From positions 736,001-800,000 of the forward strand of contig CAWHXD010000019.1 of the NCBI GenBank assembly GCA_963833225.1: a stretch of DNA of 64,000 nucleotides, read 5' to 3'. Shown here in pieces: positions 16,821-25,086 of the stretch. The notes below the pieces were generated by a model, which saw only the letters and a list, made by a program, of their open reading frames with translations, was not told the DNA's origin and ran no database searches. Origin of the DNA: an uncultured Chloroflexia bacterium (GTDB taxonomy: Bacteria; Chloroflexota; Limnocylindria; Limnocylindrales; CSP1-4). Within the stretch, counting starts at the first letter, position 1; every line of letters begins with the position of its first letter. The translations under genes and the position numbers were made by a program.

Positions 16821-17105
16821 CCTTCGTTCAGATCCGAGGGATCAGGCAGCGTGTTCTGGTCCTGCCTCACAAGGCATCCTGCAACTGCGCCACCCAGTGT
16901 GTGAAACCTGTTGGTTATGGACCATGCCATCGGCAGGGCAGCATCGGCAGGACGTCTGGCACCTTGACCGTGAGGCGATCCCGCCGGACGATCGCATCAG
17001 GGACAAGGAGACGAGAAGCTTGGTGATCGCTGCGGAGTCAGGCCCTCAGCGGGGGCGCGCCGGGCGAGCCGTGGCCTGCGGGCCTCGCCCGAGTCTCGAC
17101 GCACC

Positions 17106-17603
17106 GTGAACATGAACATGCTCACGGTGTTCCTCACGTTCTTCGCCGTGGCCGGTCCGCCGGTCGTTGAGGCGATGCGCGCCAGACGACGGCTCGATGA
17201 CGCCCTCGTCGCTCGCGGGTCCCTGCCGCGTCACCCGGGGCGTGGGCTCCCGCCGGGAATGTCGATGTTGGAGGCACTTCGCCTGTTCGTCGTAACCTGG
17301 GGCCGTCAAGACACGATCCGCGTGGACTTGGCGATCGAGGACTTCGAGCGCAGCAAGCAGGCCGCGAAGCTGGGTCACGATCTGCCAGAGGGCCGGGCGG
17401 CAGGGAGATGGACGATCGCAGCGTTGCTGCTCTGGCTTCTCGGTCTGCCGCTTGTCTTGATGCTCCTGCCGACGGCGGACCGCGTCGTGAGCGTTGTTGT
17501 CCCCGCATTCGCCGTCATCCGGGTCCCGCTCGTCATCGCCGGCTGCTGGGCCGTCTGGCACGCGATCCGCGTGGCACGCTCGGCCGCGTCAGGCGGCTCC
17601 TGA
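17106..17603 (+). CDS. hypothetical membrane protein (passenger gene)
   Basis: 165 aa, three hydrophobic segments, inside the IRs. Confidence 0.6.
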   Translation: MNMNMLTVFLTFFAVAGPPVVEAMRARRRLDDALVARGSLPRHPGRGLPPGMSMLEALRLFVVTWGRQDTIRVDLAIEDFERSKQAAKLGHDLPEGRAAGRWTIAALLLWLLGLPLVLMLLPTADRVVSVVVPAFAVIRVPLVIAGCWAVWHAIRVARSAASGGS

Positions 17604-17619
17604 GACCAATGGCTCCCCC

Positions 17620-19473
17620 AAAGAACGGCAGGTCGAGCTCGTCGTCGGGCGCGATGACCGCCACCTTCGGGATCGTCTTCGGCCGCATCTTCTTGCAGTC
17701 GGGGCAGGCCGGCGTCCCGAACGGCACCTTGACCCGGGCGCGGGGCGACATGCGGTAGGGCTTGTGGCGCGGGTCGGCGCATGACCAGGTAACGGTCTTC
17801 GCGTAGGTCGCCTTGATTGTGAGCGGCGTCCGGGGCAGGTTCGCGTCGGCGTCCCACTCGGGGACGAGGTCAGGCCGGACGCCGGCGACACTCTCGGCGG
17901 CGGTCGTCCGCGCCGTCGAGCACCGCTCGCAGCGCGTCCGGCGCTTCGTGCGCTGACCAACCTCGGCCCTCCACTCGTGCTGGCAGCGGTGGCACAGCCA
18001 GCGAGCGTCGTAGTCGGAGCCGGCGGTGACGACGGCGATGTCGCGCTCGTTGCGCTCGAAGTCCCAGTCGCGGGCGATCTCGGGGTAGTCGGTGAGCATG
18101 GTGCCCGCGACGTCGGCCGAGATCGTGCGCTGGCCCGGCTTGAACCGGAACGTGAGCGGCGGGAAGCCCAGCCGCCGGCGCTCCTCGTTGTCCTCGACGA
18201 TCCGCCGCCAGACCGACTTCACCTTCGCGCCCGCGAGGTAGGCCGGCCGCGCCTCCTGGTCCCGGTCGCGCGCCGCGAGCAGCAGCCGCGACAGCGATCG
18301 GAGCTCGGTGGGATCGTCCTCGCCGGCTTCCCAGTCGGGATTCACGAACGCTGGACCGACCTCGCGGAGGTGTTCCTTGATGATCGCCGCGAACTCGGCC
18401 TCGCCAGCCTGGCCCGAAACTCCGAGGCGCGCATGAGGTTCAGGACCATCTGCAAGCGGCGGGCGTTGCGGAACCGGAACCGCCGGCGGTCGGTCAGCTT
18501 GGTGTCGATGAAGTCGAGCAGGCCCTCGGCCGGGCTGTTGTTCCGGGGATGGTCCTTGAACCCGGGCACGCGCAGCGCGATCTGCGCCCGGACGCGGTCG
18601 GTGTTCGCGCCCATCCACTCGATGATGTTCCCGCAGTCGTGCTCGTCGGCGAACGTGAGCAGCGCCTCCCAGTCGTCCTCGGAGAGGAACGCCCGCCCGA
18701 GCAGCGGCTTGATCTCCTCGTTCTCGGCCGGCCAGCCGTCCTTCGCAGCCCAGGCTTCGAGCGCGCGTTTCAAGTGGAACTCGCAGGCCACGAACGTGGC
18801 GTTCGGCCAGCGGAGCATCGCCGCCTGCTTGATCGCCTTCGCGCCGTCCGCGACGACCCACTCGACATCGCCCGGCAGCTCGCCGAGGAAGTCCGACCAG
18901 GACTCGCGCGTCTCATCGGGCGAGAGGTGCAGCCCCCACGCCCGGAGCGGCCGCTTGGGGTCGTCGCCGCCGACTGCCGCGAGCACTGCACCGGCGCGCT
19001 TGTTGGGGTCCCAGCGCTCGCCGTGATCCACCGCGTCGTAGGGGAACAGATGCAGCGGCAGCGAATCGAGGACCAGGATCTTGGGCCAGCGCTTGGGGCC
19101 GAGCTTCTCGTCGATGAGCTCGCCGAACAGGTCGATGTAGCGACCCGAGAGCCCGAAGGCGCGGCTGGCGTAGCGGAACCCGTGCTCGTCGGTCTCGTAG
19201 CGCTGGGCGTCGTAGCGGACCTTCTGGGCCGCCTTGCGGCCGGAGTCGCCCGACCCGATCAACGCGAGGACCTTGCCCATCTCGTTCGCGCTCGTGTCGA
19301 AGCCGACCGGCGTGAGCGGTCCCTGTGCCACGCCCGGCACCACGTCGCAGGCCGAGCAGGCCACGCCCAACGGGTGGCCGCTGCACGCCGGCCGTCGCGG
19401 CTCGGAGAACGTGTGCGGCTTGATCGCCGGGTCGTCCGGGACGCACTGGAACCGGGGCCGGCGGAAGGGCCGG
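17620..19473 (-). pseudogene. Mutator/IS256-superfamily DDE transposase, main part, with two zinc-ribbon (DUF4379-like) domains
   Basis: LVLDS, VVADG, CEFH, NNSPAEG; after a frameshift near 18415: YPEIARDWD..WLCHRCQHEW..RCERC and PDLVPEWD..WSC..CPDC; 3' end approximate. Confidence 0.8.
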
Positions 19474-19711
19474 GGTCAAGTCCCAGCACGTGGTGTCACA
19501 CCTCGCGCCTGATCAACTTGCCATGAGCAACGGCTGGCTCGCCTCCTCGGTCGTGGTGACGGCATCGATGGCCGCCATGGTCTCGGGCCGGAAGTAGCGC
19601 CGGCCGTCCTGCCACTCGTCGTCCTGCTCGGCGAGGATCATGCCGACGAGGCGCAGCACGGACGCCCGATTGGGGAAGATCCCGACGACCCCGGTCCGGC
19701 GCTTGAAGCTC

Positions 19712-20798
19712 TCATGTCAAGTCCCCGGTCCGTCGGGCGTCCCGGAGCATGGTTCGGTAGATCGCGTCGGAGAGGTGGCGCTTGAGGACGCGCATAGCCT
19801 CTCGACGAGTGTGGCCATGTGCGCGGGCCTGGTCGTGGATCTGGCGGGCGCGGGGTTCGTAGCGGAGCTGGATCATCGCGATGCGGTAGATGGCGGCGTT
19901 GAGGCGCCGGTTGCCGCCGCGGGAGAGGCGGTGCCGGACGGGCGCGTTCTCGCCCTCGCCCGAGCTGGCCGGGATCGGCGCGGTGCCGTTGAACCGGGCA
20001 AAGCCGGCCTCTGTGAAGCGTCGGATGTCGCCGACCTCGACGATGATCTCGGCCGCGGCGCGGGGCGCGATGCCGACGAGCTCGGTGAGCGTCGACTTCG
20101 TCTCACGCGACCAGGGTGGTGAGTTCGGCGGTGGCCGCCTTGTCCTGCTCGAGGACGTCGCGCAGCATCGCCACGCGGTGCTCGATCAGCCGCAGCCGCA
20201 GGGCGACCGTGGGGTCGGTGACGCCGGAGGTGTCGAGCCGACGCAGCGAGTTCACGCGAGCGCTCACCGTCTTCGCTGGCCGGAGCTGGGCGCGCAGGTC
20301 CTCGGGCAGGTCGTGCACGAGGGCGTCGAGCTCGCCGAGGAGCTGGACGCGGACCTTGGTGAGGGAAGTGCGGGCGTTGTGCCACAGGGCGATCCGGTCG
20401 CGGACCGAGTCCGGCGCCGCCGATACCGCGTGCTTGAACGCCCGAGCGAGACGAGGGTTCGTCTGCGTCTCCGCGGCGATCCGGTGTGAGTCGAGCCGGT
20501 CGGACTTGCCCTCGTGACGGCCGCGCTGGCGGGCCGTCGTCTTGTGCGGCGGCACGTCGCGAACATCGCATCCGGCCTCGACGAGGAACTCGGCCAGGTG
20601 CCGGCCGAGCCCGCTGGCGCCCTCGACGCCCCAGCGATCGGCCGGGCCGAGCCCGGCAGCCCACGCCAGGCCGGCGTCATGCCCTTCGCGCGTGTTCGGG
20701 AAGTGGGCGTGTCCGAGCTCGCCGCCGCGCGAGTCGAGCACGGTCGCCGTGAACGTCTTGCGGTGCGGGTCGACGCCGACGATGTTGGGTGCCGTCAT
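19712..20798 (-). CDS. IS110 DEDD recombinase (frameshift near 20105)
   Basis: VGVDPH, GVEG, GKSDRLD; C-terminal GTAPIPASSG and GGNRRLN in the shifted frame. Confidence 0.9.
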
Positions 20799-20819
20799 GT
20801 AGTCGCCTCCAGGGTTCTG

Positions 20820-21030
20820 ACCGTCGTGGGGGAGGGACCGCGCGACGACATCCCAGTCGAGGGATCGACGCTCTCATCAGGTCAGCACGGTCCTCGGGCG
20901 ACCGTGCCGGGGTCGACACTTCAAACGGAACACCGCCACCAAATCGAGGTGGCGCCGGAGATCTCCTTCGAGTCAGGCCTCGGCACGGTCACCCACCGTA
21001 CGGGCCGCCGTCGCGGTCCTTCCGGCAGGG
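20820..21030 (-). ncRNA. putative IS110 bridge RNA
   Basis: non-coding leader with stem-loops and segments matching target (AAGGAGATC, CGTTTGA) and donor (ATGAGAGCGTC); ends approximate. Confidence 0.75.
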
Positions 21031-22195
21031 ACCACTTCAACACCAGGATCTCCTTGTTGAGCCGCTCGAGCGGGTTCGTGCTGCGGATCTTCGCCCGGTG
21101 GGTCTCAGGGAAGCTGAAGTGGGCGAGGAGATCGGGCTCGGCGTCGGCGAGCAGCTCGGCGACCGCCGCGAACCGCGGCCGGAGGCCCTCGAGGACCGCG
21201 TCGACCTGGCTGCGGGCCGACCGCTCGTCGGGCTGCTCGAACACCAGCCGGATGGCACTCGCGACCATGCTCCGGGCACTCCGGGGCACGAGGTCCTGGG
21301 CGTTGCGGGTGAAGTGCACCCGGCACCGCTGCCAGGAGGCTCCGAGCAGCTGCTCCCGGATCGCCTTCACCAGTCCGGCGTGGTCGTCGCTGATCACCAG
21401 GCGGACGCCCCGGAGGCCCCGCTCGACACAGGCCGCGGATGAAGGCTGGCCAGGCTGAGCCCTCGTCGTGCCCGGGCGACAGCTCGACTGCCAGCACCCG
21501 GCGCTCGCCACTCATCGCGACCCCGACCGCGACCAGCGCCGCCATCGACACCACCCGACCTGCCTCACGCACCTTGAGGTACGTGGCGTCGAGCCACAGG
21601 TACGGGTACGCGGTGTCACCCAGCGGCCGGCTGCGGAACGCCTCGACCTCGGCGTCGAGCGCCGCGCAGATGCGGCTGACCTCGCTCTTGCTGATGCCCT
21701 CGATGCCCAGGGCGCGGACGAGGTCGTCGACACGCCTCGTGGACACGCCCGACACGTACGCCTCCTGGACCACGGCGAGCAGCGCGCGCTCGGCTCGTCG
21801 CCGCGGCTCCAGCAGGCTCGGGAAGTACGAGCCGTCGCGGACTCGTGGGATCGCGAGCTCGACGGTGCCCACGCGGGTGTCCCAGCGCCGATCGCGGTAC
21901 CCGTTGCGACGGGTGAGGCGGCGCTCCGGATCCCGCTCGCCATGGGGGAGGCCGGTGAGCTCGGTCACCTCGGCCTCCATCACCGCCTGGGCGAGCACCC
22001 GCACGCCCTCGCGCAGAAAATCCTGGTCGCCCTCGGCGATCGCCTTGCGCACCGTGTCCTAGCACGGCCATCCTGTCCTCGGCCATCTCGGTGTTCTCCG
22101 TGTCGTCGGTTGCTAGTCCAACGACGCGAGGATGACGCGGTGGCCGTTTCCGTTCACGGCCTCAGCGCTGTGACACCAAGTCTGGGGACATGACC

Positions 22196-22364
22196 AGGGC
22201 CGGGAGCCCCAGTCCGGGTTGCCGTGGATGCGGATGGCGCCCCGGTGACCCTCGTCGCAGGCGATCGGCCGGTTCGGGATGGCGAGCGGCGGCCGGCCGC
22301 CGATCCGGCGGGCAGGCGGCGGAACGAGCGCGAGAGGCGGCGGGAGCGGGAGCGCGACGGCCAT
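22196..22364 (-). pseudogene. N-terminus of the Mutator-like transposase
   Basis: MAVALP..CDEGH..GSRP joins in frame to FRRPRFQC..H..GVACSAC when IS256 and one TSD copy are removed. Confidence 0.8.
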
Positions 22365-22538
22365 CGGCCAGACCGTGGCAGATCCGCGTGCCACCTTCCA
22401 TGACACGGGAGACCCACCGGGCCTACTTCATAACGAGGAGGTTTCACACACTGGGTGGCGCAGTTGTACAGCCACTCAACTGCGCCACCGGGTGTGGGAA
22501 ACCCAGCACCGGTCGTACTCCGGCGGTGCGGGACTTGC

Positions 22539-22581
22539 ATAATAGGATTGACAACAAGGCAAAAGTTGCATAGTCTATTAT
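22539..22581 (+). promoter_or_regulatory. sigma70 promoter and operator of hipBA
   Basis: TTGACA 22548, 17-bp spacer, TAGTCT 22571; flanked by ATAATAG/CTATTAT inverted repeat. Confidence 0.7.
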
Positions 22582-22583
22582 CC

Positions 22584-22901
22584 ATGCCTAACCGGACGCT
22601 TCCTCCGTACCCGCGCTACACCAGGCTCGCCGCCGACCTCGGTGAGCGGATCCGCCTCGCCCGGCTGCGCCGCCGCATGACTGCGGACCAGATGGCCGAA
22701 CGGATGGGGGTGACCCGTGTCACCTTGCACCGGCTGGAGCAGGGCAATCTGTCTGTCGGCTTCGGGGTTCTCGTCCGAGCGCTCGGGGTACTCGGTCTGG
22801 AGGAGGACATCGCGGCGATCGCGGCCGACGACGAACTCGGCAGGCAGCTCGCTGATGCGGCGGTCAAGCCGACCTATCGGCCGAGAAGGAACGCGCCGTG
22901 A
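22584..22901 (+). CDS. XRE-family HTH antitoxin (HipB-like)
   Basis: LGERIRLARLRRRMT..MAERMGVTRVTLHRLEQG; GTGA overlap with hipA. Confidence 0.88.
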   Translation: MPNRTLPPYPRYTRLAADLGERIRLARLRRRMTADQMAERMGVTRVTLHRLEQGNLSVGFGVLVRALGVLGLEEDIAAIAADDELGRQLADAAVKPTYRPRRNAP

Positions 22902-24136
22902 CCAGCAGCGAACTCGACACGGTCTCCGTGGAACTCGACGCAGCAGAACTCGGTGGTCCACTGGCCATCGGCACCCTGCGACGAACGCGCGCCCCGGGTG
23001 GCTCGCTCGTCGGCTTCGCCTACAGTGACGACTGGCTCGCCCGGCGTGACGCGTTCACGATCGACCCCCTGCACGGGCTCTTTCCAGGTGACCAGTGGCC
23101 GCGCGACGGGAAGATTGACCGCATCTTCACCGACGCGGCAACCGATCGCTGGGGCCGGACCCTGCTTGCCAGGCGCGAGGCACACCTCGCGCGGACCGAG
23201 CGGCGGCCACGGCGGACCCTCGACGAATGGGACTACCTCCTCAGGATCTCCGACGTCTCCCGGATGGGTGCGCTGCGCTTCCGCACGCCCGGCGGTCCCT
23301 ACCTCGACGAGAACGACGGCGTGCCGCCGATGACGCGCCTGCCGGAGCTGCTCTCTGCCGCCCACGAGATCGAGCGCCCCCGCAGTGCGAATTGGGAGGC
23401 CGAGAGCCTGGCCCTCCTGCTCGCCCCGGGCAGTTCGTTGGGCGGTGCTCGACCGAAGGCAAGCTACGTGGACCCCGACGGGTCGCTCTGGATCGCGAAG
23501 TTTCCCTCGCGGACCGACCAGCGCGACATGGCCACATGCGAGTACGTGCTGAACGAGATCGCGGCTGCGGCCGGGATCGACGTGCCCGAGCATCGGCTCC
23601 TGAGCATCGGCGAGGGTCGCCATTCGTTCGCCGCAAAGCGATTCGACCGGACCCCATCAACCCGACGTCTCTATGCCTCGTCAATGACGCTCCTCTCGCG
23701 CCGCGACAGGGAGGAGGCGAGCTACCTCGACATCGCCCTCGCGATCGCGGACCACGGGGAGACTGGCGCGATCAACGACATGCTCGCGGAGATGTTCCGG
23801 CGCGTGGTGTTCAACGTCGCCGTCGCTCATCGCGATGACCATCTCCGCAACCACGGGTTCATCAGGACGCCCCGCGGCTGGCGGCTGGCGCCGGCGTTCG
23901 ATCTGAACCCGATGCCCGAGATCCCCGAGCATGCGCTCGCGATCGACGACGCCGATCACACCGGAGACCTTGACCTCGTGTCGAGCACGGCCGCGTTCTA
24001 CCGCCTGCCCGAGCAGCGGGCGTCCGCAGTCATCGACGAGGTCATGACGGCGGTCAAGGCGTGGAAGACGCCAGCCCGGAAGGTGGGGCTCGGCCCGGTC
24101 GAGATGGACACGATCGCCGAGGCGGTGGAACGGTGA
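22898..24136 (+). CDS. hipA: HipA-family kinase toxin
   Basis: GSSLGGARPK P-loop, WIAKFP, RFDR, DDHLRNHGF, LAPAFD. Confidence 0.93.
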   Translation: MTSSELDTVSVELDAAELGGPLAIGTLRRTRAPGGSLVGFAYSDDWLARRDAFTIDPLHGLFPGDQWPRDGKIDRIFTDAATDRWGRTLLARREAHLARTERRPRRTLDEWDYLLRISDVSRMGALRFRTPGGPYLDENDGVPPMTRLPELLSAAHEIERPRSANWEAESLALLLAPGSSLGGARPKASYVDPDGSLWIAKFPSRTDQRDMATCEYVLNEIAAAAGIDVPEHRLLSIGEGRHSFAAKRFDRTPSTRRLYASSMTLLSRRDREEASYLDIALAIADHGETGAINDMLAEMFRRVVFNVAVAHRDDHLRNHGFIRTPRGWRLAPAFDLNPMPEIPEHALAIDDADHTGDLDLVSSTAAFYRLPEQRASAVIDEVMTAVKAWKTPARKVGLGPVEMDTIAEAVER

Positions 24137-24254
24137 GACCGGCTTGCCAGCCGCCGTGCTCCTCGAGATGGCCACGGTCTCGCGCGATCGTTCGACATGG
24201 CGTCGATGCCGAGGTTTCCCACACCCGGTGGCGCAGTTGGGGCATCCCTCGCGC

Positions 24255-24284
24255 TTGACATGTGACTCGTTGGTCACCTATTGT
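24255..24284 (+). promoter_or_regulatory. sigma70 promoter with ArsR-type operator
   Basis: TTGACA-N18-TATTGT; GTGAC-N6-GTCAC palindrome in the spacer; ATG 7 nt after the -10. Confidence 0.7.
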
Positions 24285-24291
24285 CTCCGGC

Positions 24292-25086
24292 ATGGACGAC
24301 GAGGTGTTTCGCGCGCTGGCCGACGCCAGTCGCCGGACGCTGCTCGACCGGCTCTTCGAGCGCGATGGCCAGACGCTTGGAGAGCTGGAGGCCGCGCTGC
24401 CGGCGATGACCCGGTTCGGCGTGATGAAGCACCTCCGCGTCCTCGAGGCGGCGAACCTCGTGACCAGCCGCAAGGTCGGTCGGGAGCGCCACCACTACCT
24501 CAACCCCGTCCCCATCCGACGGGTCCACGACCGGTGGCTGGACCGCTACGCGATCCGTGCCGCCGACCTGCTCGACGACTTCAAGACCCTGCTGGAGATC
24601 GATCCGATGACGTCCCCCGACACTGCCGACACCGCCGCGACGGCCGCTGAGGCCGCTCCACGCCACGTCTTCGCCACGTTCATCCGCGCCACGCCCGAGG
24701 CGATCTGGCGCGCGCTCACCGAGTCCGACTTCACGACCCGCTACTGGTACGGCTCCACCGTCCACTCCGAGTGGACCGTCGGTGCTCCATGGGAGCTCCA
24801 CACGGCAAGCGGCGACCTCGGGATCACGGGCGAGGTGCTCGAGGCCGACCCGCCGCACCGGCTCGTTGTCAGCTACAAGCAGGCCTGGGGCGGGGGCGAC
24901 GAGCCGCTGTCGCGCGTCACGTTCGAGGTCGGGAGCGCGGGCCCGGGCGTCCAGAAGCTGACGGTGGTCCACGAGACCGAGCCCGGCACCTCGACCCAGA
25001 TCGCCGACGTCGCCGCCGGCTGGCCGTTCATCCTCGCGGGGCTCAAGACCCTGCTCGAGACCGGCGAGCCCATGGCGGCCGGCTGA
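24292..25086 (+). CDS. ArsR regulator-SRPBCC (AHSA1) fusion
   Basis: FRALADASRR..MKHLRVLEAANLV; IRATPEAIWRALT..GWPFILAGLKTLLETG. Confidence 0.9.
   Translation: MDDEVFRALADASRRTLLDRLFERDGQTLGELEAALPAMTRFGVMKHLRVLEAANLVTSRKVGRERHHYLNPVPIRRVHDRWLDRYAIRAADLLDDFKTLLEIDPMTSPDTADTAATAAEAAPRHVFATFIRATPEAIWRALTESDFTTRYWYGSTVHSEWTVGAPWELHTASGDLGITGEVLEADPPHRLVVSYKQAWGGGDEPLSRVTFEVGSAGPGVQKLTVVHETEPGTSTQIADVAAGWPFILAGLKTLLETGEPMAAG

Follow-up and report, generated by a model that had tools for sequence, protein, structure and literature searches.

The window analysed here is a stretch of 64,000 nucleotides (nt) from an uncultured Chloroflexia bacterium (assembly GCA_963833225.1, contig CAWHXD010000019.1, positions 736,001 to 800,000 of the forward strand), in which a decayed transposon, element A, occupies positions 16882-22466. 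With a probability of about 0.8, element A is the dead copy of a promoter-seeking group of insertion sequence (IS)-like elements that reside mainly in Limnocylindria-type Chloroflexota, and whose transposase carries two zinc ribbons behind a catalytic core of Mutator type. This reading is carried by the relatives of the element, which have comparable ends and the same fused protein, and which lie at a fixed distance from the promoter word TTGACA.

The reference for the protein is P0001, an intact fused homologue of 670 aa, which is 77% identical to the catalytic piece in the window and carries the zinc-ribbon domain DUF4379 (PF14311). Close relatives were found at 26 loci of species-representative genomes, and a pair of ends was convincing at 14 of these; the 12 loci without a pair were dropped, as were L009 and L010, which lie at contig edges without flanks, and the remaining 12 loci make up, together with L151 and the composite in the window, 14 elements with both flanks. 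Intact elements measure 2.2-3.2 kb and have near-perfect terminal inverted repeats of 26-30 nt with C as the first base. There are several end types, which have in common the C at the tip and a TGCG four to five bases inward, and the type seen in the window is also present on L003 (87% identical protein) and L005. Among the 14 elements, the target duplication is a perfect 8-9 bp in ten, has one mismatch in two, and is absent from two. Homologues are therefore flanked by inverted repeats and target duplications, which agrees with the mobile element proposed in the first-pass annotation of this DNA.

In 13 of the 14 bounded elements an outward TTGACA begins past the tip, at 14 nt for 12 ends and at 15 nt for two, and the word is found nowhere else within 60 nt of the tips. 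All 14 hexamers are the exact consensus, nine on the 5' side of the transposase and five on the other side (L024 being counted on both), against a background of 1.2e-4 per position, from which a binomial P of about 3e-40 is obtained, a figure that ignores kinship between the elements, although the sites differ.

The promoter struck in the window is the following:

24255-24294, forward strand: targeted promoter, with TTGACA at 24255-24260, an 18-nt spacer, TATTGT at 24279-24284 and, at 24292, the ATG of a gene with HTH_20 and AHSA1 domains.

Its TTGACA begins 14 nt from the tip (24240) of element B, the partner of A in the composite described below, and insertion leaves the promoter, whose -35 box is of sigma-70 type, intact. 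The HTH_20-AHSA1 promoter also holds a palindrome, TGTGAC..GTCAC, beside its TTGACA, with the -10 box near the start codon. The orthologous promoter has been struck independently in the window, in L004 and in L030, by elements with three different end types. Nine more orthologous promoters were located in the genus, with clear ends at the same distance in L170 and L162 and possible relics of ends in L164, L169, L167 and L168, while three are empty, reading TTGACA in L163 and TTGACG in L165 and L166. Two of the loci have arrangements of their own. In L162, a gene-less stretch of 445 bp lies between two CTTGTGCG-type ends upstream of the orthologous promoter and looks like a miniature non-autonomous derivative, since it is too short for a transposase. 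In L024, TTGACAGGTCG is found 14 nt from both tips, without a target duplication, the outcome to be expected if two copies, each at its own promoter, had recombined.

These sites also bear on the idea that TTGACA belongs to the element, as an outward-firing promoter in its end, rather than to the target. Outward -35 boxes occur in the ends of many insertion sequences, and the commonest end type of the group has a TTGACG within its repeat (CCGTCCTTGACGCACAAG), but the hexamer lies outside the target duplication and on one side only, the element-free promoters of L163, L165 and L166 have the box in the same place, and the 14-nt spacers are of unrelated sequence, all of which makes this idea very improbable. 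TTGACA is thus assigned to the target, because the duplication is located between it and the tip and the spacers have no sequence in common.

A comparable habit has been described for other Mutator-type elements. The sections of Guerillot et al. 2014 (PMC3942029) drawn on here and below place insertions 13-17 bp upstream of sigma-A -35 boxes in the TnGBS/ISLre2 and ISKra4 lineages, and those sections report that a positional promoter signal was not found for IS256 elements. Promoter targeting, known for TnGBS/ISLre2 and ISKra4, is new for a branch nearer to IS256.

The copy in the window is composed of the following parts:

16882-22466, reverse strand: element A, a decayed zinc-ribbon Mutator-type transposon, delimited by its inverted repeats and by homology to the intact L003 and L005.
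16882-16909, forward strand: terminal inverted repeat on the 3' side of the transposase, 28 nt, perfect, CAACTGCGCC...GAAACCT.
22439-22466, reverse strand: terminal inverted repeat on the 5' side of the transposase, 28 nt, perfect.
22204-22364, reverse strand: N-terminal 54 codons of the zinc-ribbon transposase, with the start ATG at 22364.
18420-19473, reverse strand: catalytic core in frame -3, with the first D at 19065-19067, the second D at 18846-18848, CxxH at 18774-18785 and E at 18525-18527.
18420-18429, reverse strand: frameshift between the catalytic and C-terminal parts, placed by tblastn of P0001.
17623-18429, reverse strand: C-terminal third in frame -2, with a long helix, a pair of DUF4379 ribbons, one at about 17914-18078 and the other at about 17686-17868, and the acidic end ..DDELDLPF.
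17106-17603, forward strand: passenger ORF165, from the list of open reading frames (ORFs), 165 aa, hydrophobic, convergent to the transposase gene.

Element A is now 5585 bp long, of which 2855 bp remain without the nested insertion and its duplication. Past the 28 perfect nt its repeats differ for 4 nt and then have GTTATG in common (16914-16919 in the 3'-side copy); the perfect repeats and their extension, already noticed in the first-pass annotation, are evident in the letters and from a repeat search, which gives arms of 47 nt at 85%, and a 27-mer of the end had 0 chance matches in 100 shuffles. By codon arithmetic, excision of 19474-22203 (2730 nt) joins 22204 to 19473 in frame, and the rejoined junction, ..GSRP-FRRPRF.., matches the ..KSRPFRRPRF.. 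of intact P0001, which bears out the earlier proposal that the gene is restored when the IS256-like insertion and one copy of its duplication are taken out. The expected protein of roughly 670 aa has the length of P0001 itself.

The frameshift, which had been claimed near 18415, is placed at 18420-18429 by tblastn of P0001, where residues 65-406 align to 19445-18420 in frame -3 and residues 403-670 to 18429-17623 in frame -2; P0013, whose identity to the window is 86-94% on both flanks of the site in this comparison, reads through it. Of the words sampled from 17900-19400, at most 9% were present in any public run, and none of the contigs obtained from four runs (85% likeness) spans 18420, so that a sequencing error and a mutation are both possible. 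The codons of the catalytic Asp-Asp-Glu (DDE) triad are intact in the window, according to an ungapped tblastn match to P0001 checked on the letters of the window. The natural stop after ..DLPF is gone, because of which the reading frame continues for 29 codons to 17536. ORF165 has no Pfam or NCBIfam match and no relative among the related element loci. The window copy is dead and without functional consequence, and its first-pass description was right in every detail that was checked.

The intact transposase is encoded by one gene of 600-670 aa, in which an N-terminal Cys/His finger region is followed by the DDE core with a helical insert of 107 residues, a long helix and two DUF4379 treble-clef ribbons. 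D191 and D264 are invariant among the relatives, and E371, C65, H75, C94, C97 and H288 are kept in at least 90% of them, which includes the N-terminal Cys/His motif that had been predicted from the window. The suggestion of two DUF4379-like repeats is confirmed by Pfam, given that PF14311 (gathering threshold 24.5 bits) matches the window piece over two stretches with 78.2 bits (5e-22) and P0001 with 79.5 bits. The ribbon part is not a separate gene, as it belongs to the same ORF in the intact homologues and PF14311 is present in 42 of the 47 hits to P0001. Among the titles and abstract openings listed for papers on DUF4379, none was about a transposase.

For the core, the Mutator signature proposed earlier is borne out by the recovery of D, D, CxxH and E and by weak Pfam matches, to Transposase_mut (PF00872; 2.7e-5, 23.7 bits, gathering threshold 21) and to MULE (3.7e-4) for the window, and to PF00872 with 23.3 bits for P0001; the Transposase_mut matches of both cover part of the model only. 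The NCBIfam IS256 model (NF033543, cut-off 150) gives 26 bits for the window core and 22 bits for P0001; it is hit by each of the 36 close members, always below the cut-off (best E 1.3e-9), and the second-best model for all 36 is IS1249, at about 20 bits where 300 are required (best E 2.7e-8). Relatives of about 400 aa likewise stay below the NCBIfam IS cut-offs.

In an AlphaFold2 model of P0001 (pLDDT 81), helices occupy residues 267-354 of the insert and a helix of 43 residues (447-489) precedes the ribbons. The best PDB matches of this model in Foldseek are chains of the ISCth4 transposase (E 2.4e-9, TM 0.51-0.55, 14% identity), and the C-terminus resembles DUF4379 proteins of trypanosome mitoribosomes (6yxx_E2, 3.7e-14). 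Profile comparison by hhalign with ten IS256 transposases of the same phylum gives 96% (E 4e-9, 253 columns), in a register that aligns LDS with LDA, VADG with SDxH and SNxxAE with TNPxER, and thereby D, D, CxxH and E. Given this fold match to ISCth4 and the profile match to IS256, the core is an outlying IS256-like Mutator enzyme.

This placement can be compared with the p-MULT scheme of Guerillot et al., whose description comprises a DDE domain aligning with that of IS256, a helical insert, 99-138 aa long, that separates the second D from E, a C/D(2)H motif 11-19 aa past the second D, a circular intermediate whose ends lie 6-10 bp from each other, inverted repeats 18-39 bp long that have C as their terminal base, and direct repeats of 8-9 bp (PMC3942029). 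In the zinc-ribbon group, 107 residues separate D264 from E371, and the ends of 26-30 nt begin with C and are accompanied by duplications of 8-9 bp. The first-pass annotation had spoken of a possibly undescribed family, and of this it can be kept that no Pfam or NCBIfam model searched names the group; the core, however, is IS256-like by profile and fold. In kind the group is IS256/Mutator, its domain layout is new and its target is an exact promoter box; giving it the rank of a family of its own is a question of preference.

Membership in the ISKra4 group (p-MULT 4) would be the other obvious placement, as ISKra2, 4, 5 and 6 are promoter-targeting and Chloroflexi hold p-MULT 4 elements, according to the same sections (PMC3942029), and as the behaviour is the same, with near-perfect ends and the promoter on either side (nine against five). 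This is likeness rather than membership, which is improbable. The NCBIfam ISKra4 model (NF033572, cut-off 205) reaches 147 bits at two other places in the genome of the window and gives nothing at element A; neither ISKra4 nor ISLre2 was matched by hmmscan in the window pieces or the 36 relatives; and hhalign against ten ISKra4-type transposases of the same phylum yields 3.8%, as opposed to the 96% obtained for IS256.

The first-pass annotation had also supposed that the zinc ribbons help to select targets, and three clades are informative on this point. Ribbon-less relatives of about 410 aa were collected at 80 soil metagenome loci (L066-L145), 63 of them with paired ends, as elements of 1.35-1.45 kb whose tips are poly-C (CCCCCC..ACGCATCTC..). 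At their 40 distinct sites (70 ends), TTGACA is found within 30 nt in none, and CTAG lies at offset 5-8 at 34 of the 70 ends; as CTAG flanks the short duplication on either side, the target is symmetric, of the CTAG-N6-CTAG type. A second ribbon-bearing clade (L146 and L177), with CCCTGTTGTATCTG ends, inserts at the 3' ends of tRNA genes. L146 is located in the genome of the window itself, on the same contig (C19) but outside the window, where it adjoins a tRNA-Arg gene and has an open frame of 703 aa with two DUF4379 ribbons. In both L146 and L177 the T-arm word GGATTCGAACC begins 14 nt from the tip, and an 8-nt duplication spans the acceptor end. Finally, L151, which is 29% identical to P0001 and whose single ribbon has diverged beyond the reach of Pfam, keeps to the TTGACA rule. 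The long forms thus read an asymmetric word at 14 nt and the short forms do not, a pattern in keeping with a reader arm formed by the 43-residue helix and the ribbons behind it.

Two explanations of this pattern have to be weighed. According to the first, the transposase is a long divergent member of IS256 in which the ribbons are decoration, serving end binding, multimerisation or regulation, and the TTGACA rule has its source in another place: the finger region at the N-terminus, the stretch separating the N-terminal domains, as has been suggested for TnGBS and ISKra4, or contact with RNA polymerase or sigma factor bound at the promoter. The profile and fold of the core and the weak matches of all 36 close members to IS256 and IS1249 are in line with it, as is the fact that Guerillot et al. 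assign the signature of promoter targeting in other branches to the N-terminal region (PMC3942029, in the sections cited). L151 obeys the rule with a single poor ribbon and L146 has two ribbons and a different target, which also fits decoration. However, 22-26 bits are far from the IS256 cut-off of 150, the size and architecture lie outside the IS256 family as known from ISfinder, and the positional promoter signal is missing from IS256 in the sections cited (PMC3942029). The ribbon-less relatives, moreover, have no TTGACA rule, and all 14 occupied hexamers are exactly TTGACA and TTGACG stands in two of the three orthologous promoters that are unoccupied, which fits direct base reading better than the recognition of promoters as such. 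This explanation is therefore quite possible, although it falls short of being probable.

According to the second explanation, an IS256-type core cuts and joins the strands and the helix-ribbon arm acts as ruler and reader for a clade-specific word 14 bp away. The sharp TTGACA rule, the different target of the ribbon-less relatives and the same 14 nt in the tRNA clade favour, by correlation, the part of the earlier supposition that concerns target selection, but we hold the explanation as a whole tentatively, as somewhat unlikely. The odds are about even that the C-terminal ribbon module reads the hexamer directly from the DNA while being kept at an unvarying distance from the active site. If ruler and reader were indeed combined in this way, the choice of target would be modular and in principle exchangeable.

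The distribution of the group is wide in protein collections and patchy in genomes. A library of cluster representatives contains 427 clusters at E<=1e-3, with lengths of about 400 aa or about 600-830 aa; among 86 of the longer representatives, DUF4379 is present in 41, MULE in 27 and Transposase_mut in 23, likewise at E<=1e-3. Among the seven clusters held at NCBI, the only source name is "zinc-ribbon domain-containing protein", given to one member. Nearly all the genomes with the 26 loci are metagenome-assembled genomes (MAGs) labelled Chloroflexia, Chloroflexota or Limnocylindria, with single loci labelled Thermoanaerobaculales, Acidimicrobiales and beta proteobacterium. Of 61 related genomes, 10 gave matches (9 of 36 in the genus, none of 24 in a small-genome sister family); matches were also obtained in 11 of 401 genomes class-wide at E<=1e-60 (one of them the unpublished G346), and, with a broad profile applied phylum-wide, in 11 of 401 genomes, 10 of which belong to the class. 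In the plasmid collection, tblastn with P0001 found one record, matched in the ribbon region only and annotated as a zinc-ribbon protein.

The elements often carry one or two unrelated passenger genes, convergent and placed between the stop of the transposase and the end of the element, which differ from one element to the next; ORF165 occupies this position in the window. For example, L009 has HEAT repeats (HEAT_2), L019 has DUF4279, and small hydrophobic or secreted proteins occur elsewhere; a DUF2975 membrane protein and an HTH_26 regulator are encoded at 4391-5196 of L005, on the reverse strand, inside an intact element with the window's end type.

A further feature of the transposase is its tail. 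Six of the 36 aligned close members terminate in an acidic run followed by (L/V)(P)F, such as VEDDLPF or EDELF; P0001 ends in ..VEDDLPF, the window copy in ..DDELDLPF (17623-17646), and two short-form relatives in GADDLPF and EEDDDIPF (the latter being P0136). The SSB (the protein that binds single-stranded DNA) of the window's genome terminates in ..DDLDDLPF, and the acidic C-terminal tails of SSB are docking sites for other proteins. It is a guess that SSB-binding proteins of replication or repair might be brought in by the transposase's tail for copy-out; among the titles listed in a literature search, none dealt with an SSB-like tail of a transposase. The places concerned by this resemblance also include P0116 and 1318-1935 of L171, on the reverse strand.

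Movement of the group would be expected to proceed by copy-out and paste-in through a circle, given its kinship with IS256 and ISCth4 and the biochemistry of the IS256 family (PMC7780238, in the part of that work relied on here).

In the window, element A has itself been a target, and the insertions nested in it are these:

19474-22195, reverse strand: IS256-like element with inverted repeats, whose frameshifted transposase is in pieces at 21105-22052, 20921-21511 and 19513-19716.
About 19706-21035 (limits approximate), reverse strand: IS110-like element within the IS256-like one, recognised by an ORF at 20103-20798 (PF01548, 1e-16) and by the break in IS256 homology.

The 8-bp duplication of the IS256-like insertion, AGGGCCGG, is found at 19466-19473 and 22196-22203, and two of its ORF pieces match Pfam Transposase_mut with 6e-65 and 1e-38. 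The nesting is three deep, IS110-like in IS256-like in zinc-ribbon transposon, and both inner transposase genes are also frameshifted.

On the other side of A lies element B, and the features that concern the pair are the following:

22467-22476: spacer from A to B, TACAGCCACT, 10 nt, as long as a target duplication together with one or two tip bases whose assignment is ambiguous.
22477-24240, forward strand: element B, without a transposase, with variant ends (24 of 27 positions identical to those of A; 27 of 27 between its own arms).
16873-16880 on the left, GGCATCCT, and 24241-24248 on the right, GGCATCCC: duplication of the composite A+B, matching at 7 of 8 positions.
16862-16873: putative remnant of an older element's tip, CTGCCTCACAAG, weak, found also at the orthologous promoter of L164.

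The cargo of B consists of an XRE-type helix-turn-helix (HTH) gene at 22584-22901 (HTH_31, 43.8 bits) and a gene for a HipA-like kinase at 22898-24136 (PF07804, 160.6 bits), which overlap by 4 nt and are predicted to form a HipBA toxin-antitoxin module. Among the 151 genomes of the family, relatives of hipBA gave seven long matches, at about 67-71% DNA identity and none with the ends of B, so that the mobility of B is judged from its ends alone. The possibility that B is a newer insertion at the present promoter was dropped, as its own flanks do not match.

Matching flanks were found neither for A alone nor for B alone, and the simplest reading would be that the two moved as a composite, using the outer end of each. 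The right flank was recovered in nine relatives, in none of which does the left flank of the window adjoin it; given that no empty site was found, the duplication of the composite is judged from the window and the orthologous promoters only. An arrangement of the kind to be expected from repeated insertion at the same promoter-defined spot is seen in L019, where a new element and its 8-nt duplication precede the decayed tip left by an older one. The history may accordingly have had three steps: A would have come to adjoin the hipBA cassette B through repeated insertion at one promoter, which would have left a spacer of duplication length between them; the pair would then have been transferred as a composite to the HTH_20-AHSA1 promoter; and an IS256-like element may afterwards have struck A, and an IS110-like element that one, while A gained its frameshift and lost its stop. 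The 10-nt junction of A and B is thus explained as a duplication-length spacer, and not as the junction of a circle.

Several observations weigh against the proposed identity of the group and its habits. The CEFH motif (C285 invariant, H288 kept in at least 90%) lies 21 residues past D264, outside the published 11-19. The count of the promoter rule was made after 12 of the 26 loci, without convincing ends, and L009 and L010 had been left out. The genome of the window has no copy of the TTGACA clade other than this dead one, besides one member of the tRNA clade, and since nearly all the records are MAGs, binning errors may account for some of the host assignments. The composite has an imperfect target duplication, at 7 of 8. 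The link between ribbons and target is a weak one, a correlation over three clades that are not independent, within which L151 targets TTGACA with a single poor ribbon and L146, with two good ribbons, has another target. Finally, all steps of the mechanism are drawn from sequence and from the biochemistry of the IS256 family.

The interest of the group lies in part in what it may reveal about promoter finding. For the promoter-seeking Mutator-type elements already described (TnGBS/ISLre2 and ISKra4), we know of no identified reader of the promoter. The zinc-ribbon group offers a sharper rule, with an exact hexamer at exactly 14 nt, together with natural comparison sets and a candidate domain, and the way in which a DDE transposase locates a promoter thereby becomes open to direct test. 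There is practical interest as well in a one-protein transposase whose insertions fall at a set distance from a word of six bases and leave the gene unharmed. In soil Chloroflexota, the rule explains the stacked ends and relics found just upstream of promoters, where repeated strikes at one promoter build composites that bear a toxin-antitoxin cassette.

Among known systems, the IS256 family (p-MULT 1), represented by the TnpA of ISCth4 (PDB 6xg8/6xgx), shares with the zinc-ribbon group the DDE domain of RNase-H fold, the helical insert and CxxH, as well as repeats with an initial C and duplications of 8-9 bp, and it provides the best fold and profile match. An IS256 transposase has about 400 aa, in an element of about 1.3 kb, and the ten IS256 ORFs compared here have 391-435 aa, as opposed to 600-670 aa and 2.2-3.2 kb in the zinc-ribbon group, which differs furthermore in its N-terminal Cys/His region, its C-terminal helix and two ribbons, its passengers and its strict target. 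The IS1249 group of IS256 is the second-best NCBIfam model, but at about 20 of 300 bits, and its architecture and size differ.

ISKra4 (p-MULT 4) and TnGBS/ISLre2 (p-MULT 3) also belong to the Mutator superfamily, and they share the fixed short distance upstream of the -35 box and the duplications of 8-9 bp; ISKra4 resembles the zinc-ribbon group in addition by having the promoter on either side of elements with near-perfect repeats. The accessory domains differ, as does the distance, which is 14 nt here and, in the sections of the survey cited, 15-17 for TnGBS and 13-17 overall (PMC3942029), and there is no kinship with ISKra4 at the level of profiles (3.8%, and no NF033572 hit). The zinc-ribbon group has the promoter habit of ISKra4 and TnGBS in another branch, closer to IS256.

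For the partner element, the nearest parallel is with cassettes of the mobile insertion cassette (MIC) or miniature inverted-repeat transposable element (MITE) type, in which, as in B, the ends of an autonomous element enclose passengers and no transposase; unlike these, B has no duplication of its own and was seen once, inside a composite. The ribbons, finally, have their counterpart in mS66 and mt-SAF33 of trypanosome mitoribosomes, in which the same treble-clef DUF4379 also occurs twice; there they belong to ribosomal or assembly proteins, whereas here they are fused to a transposase.

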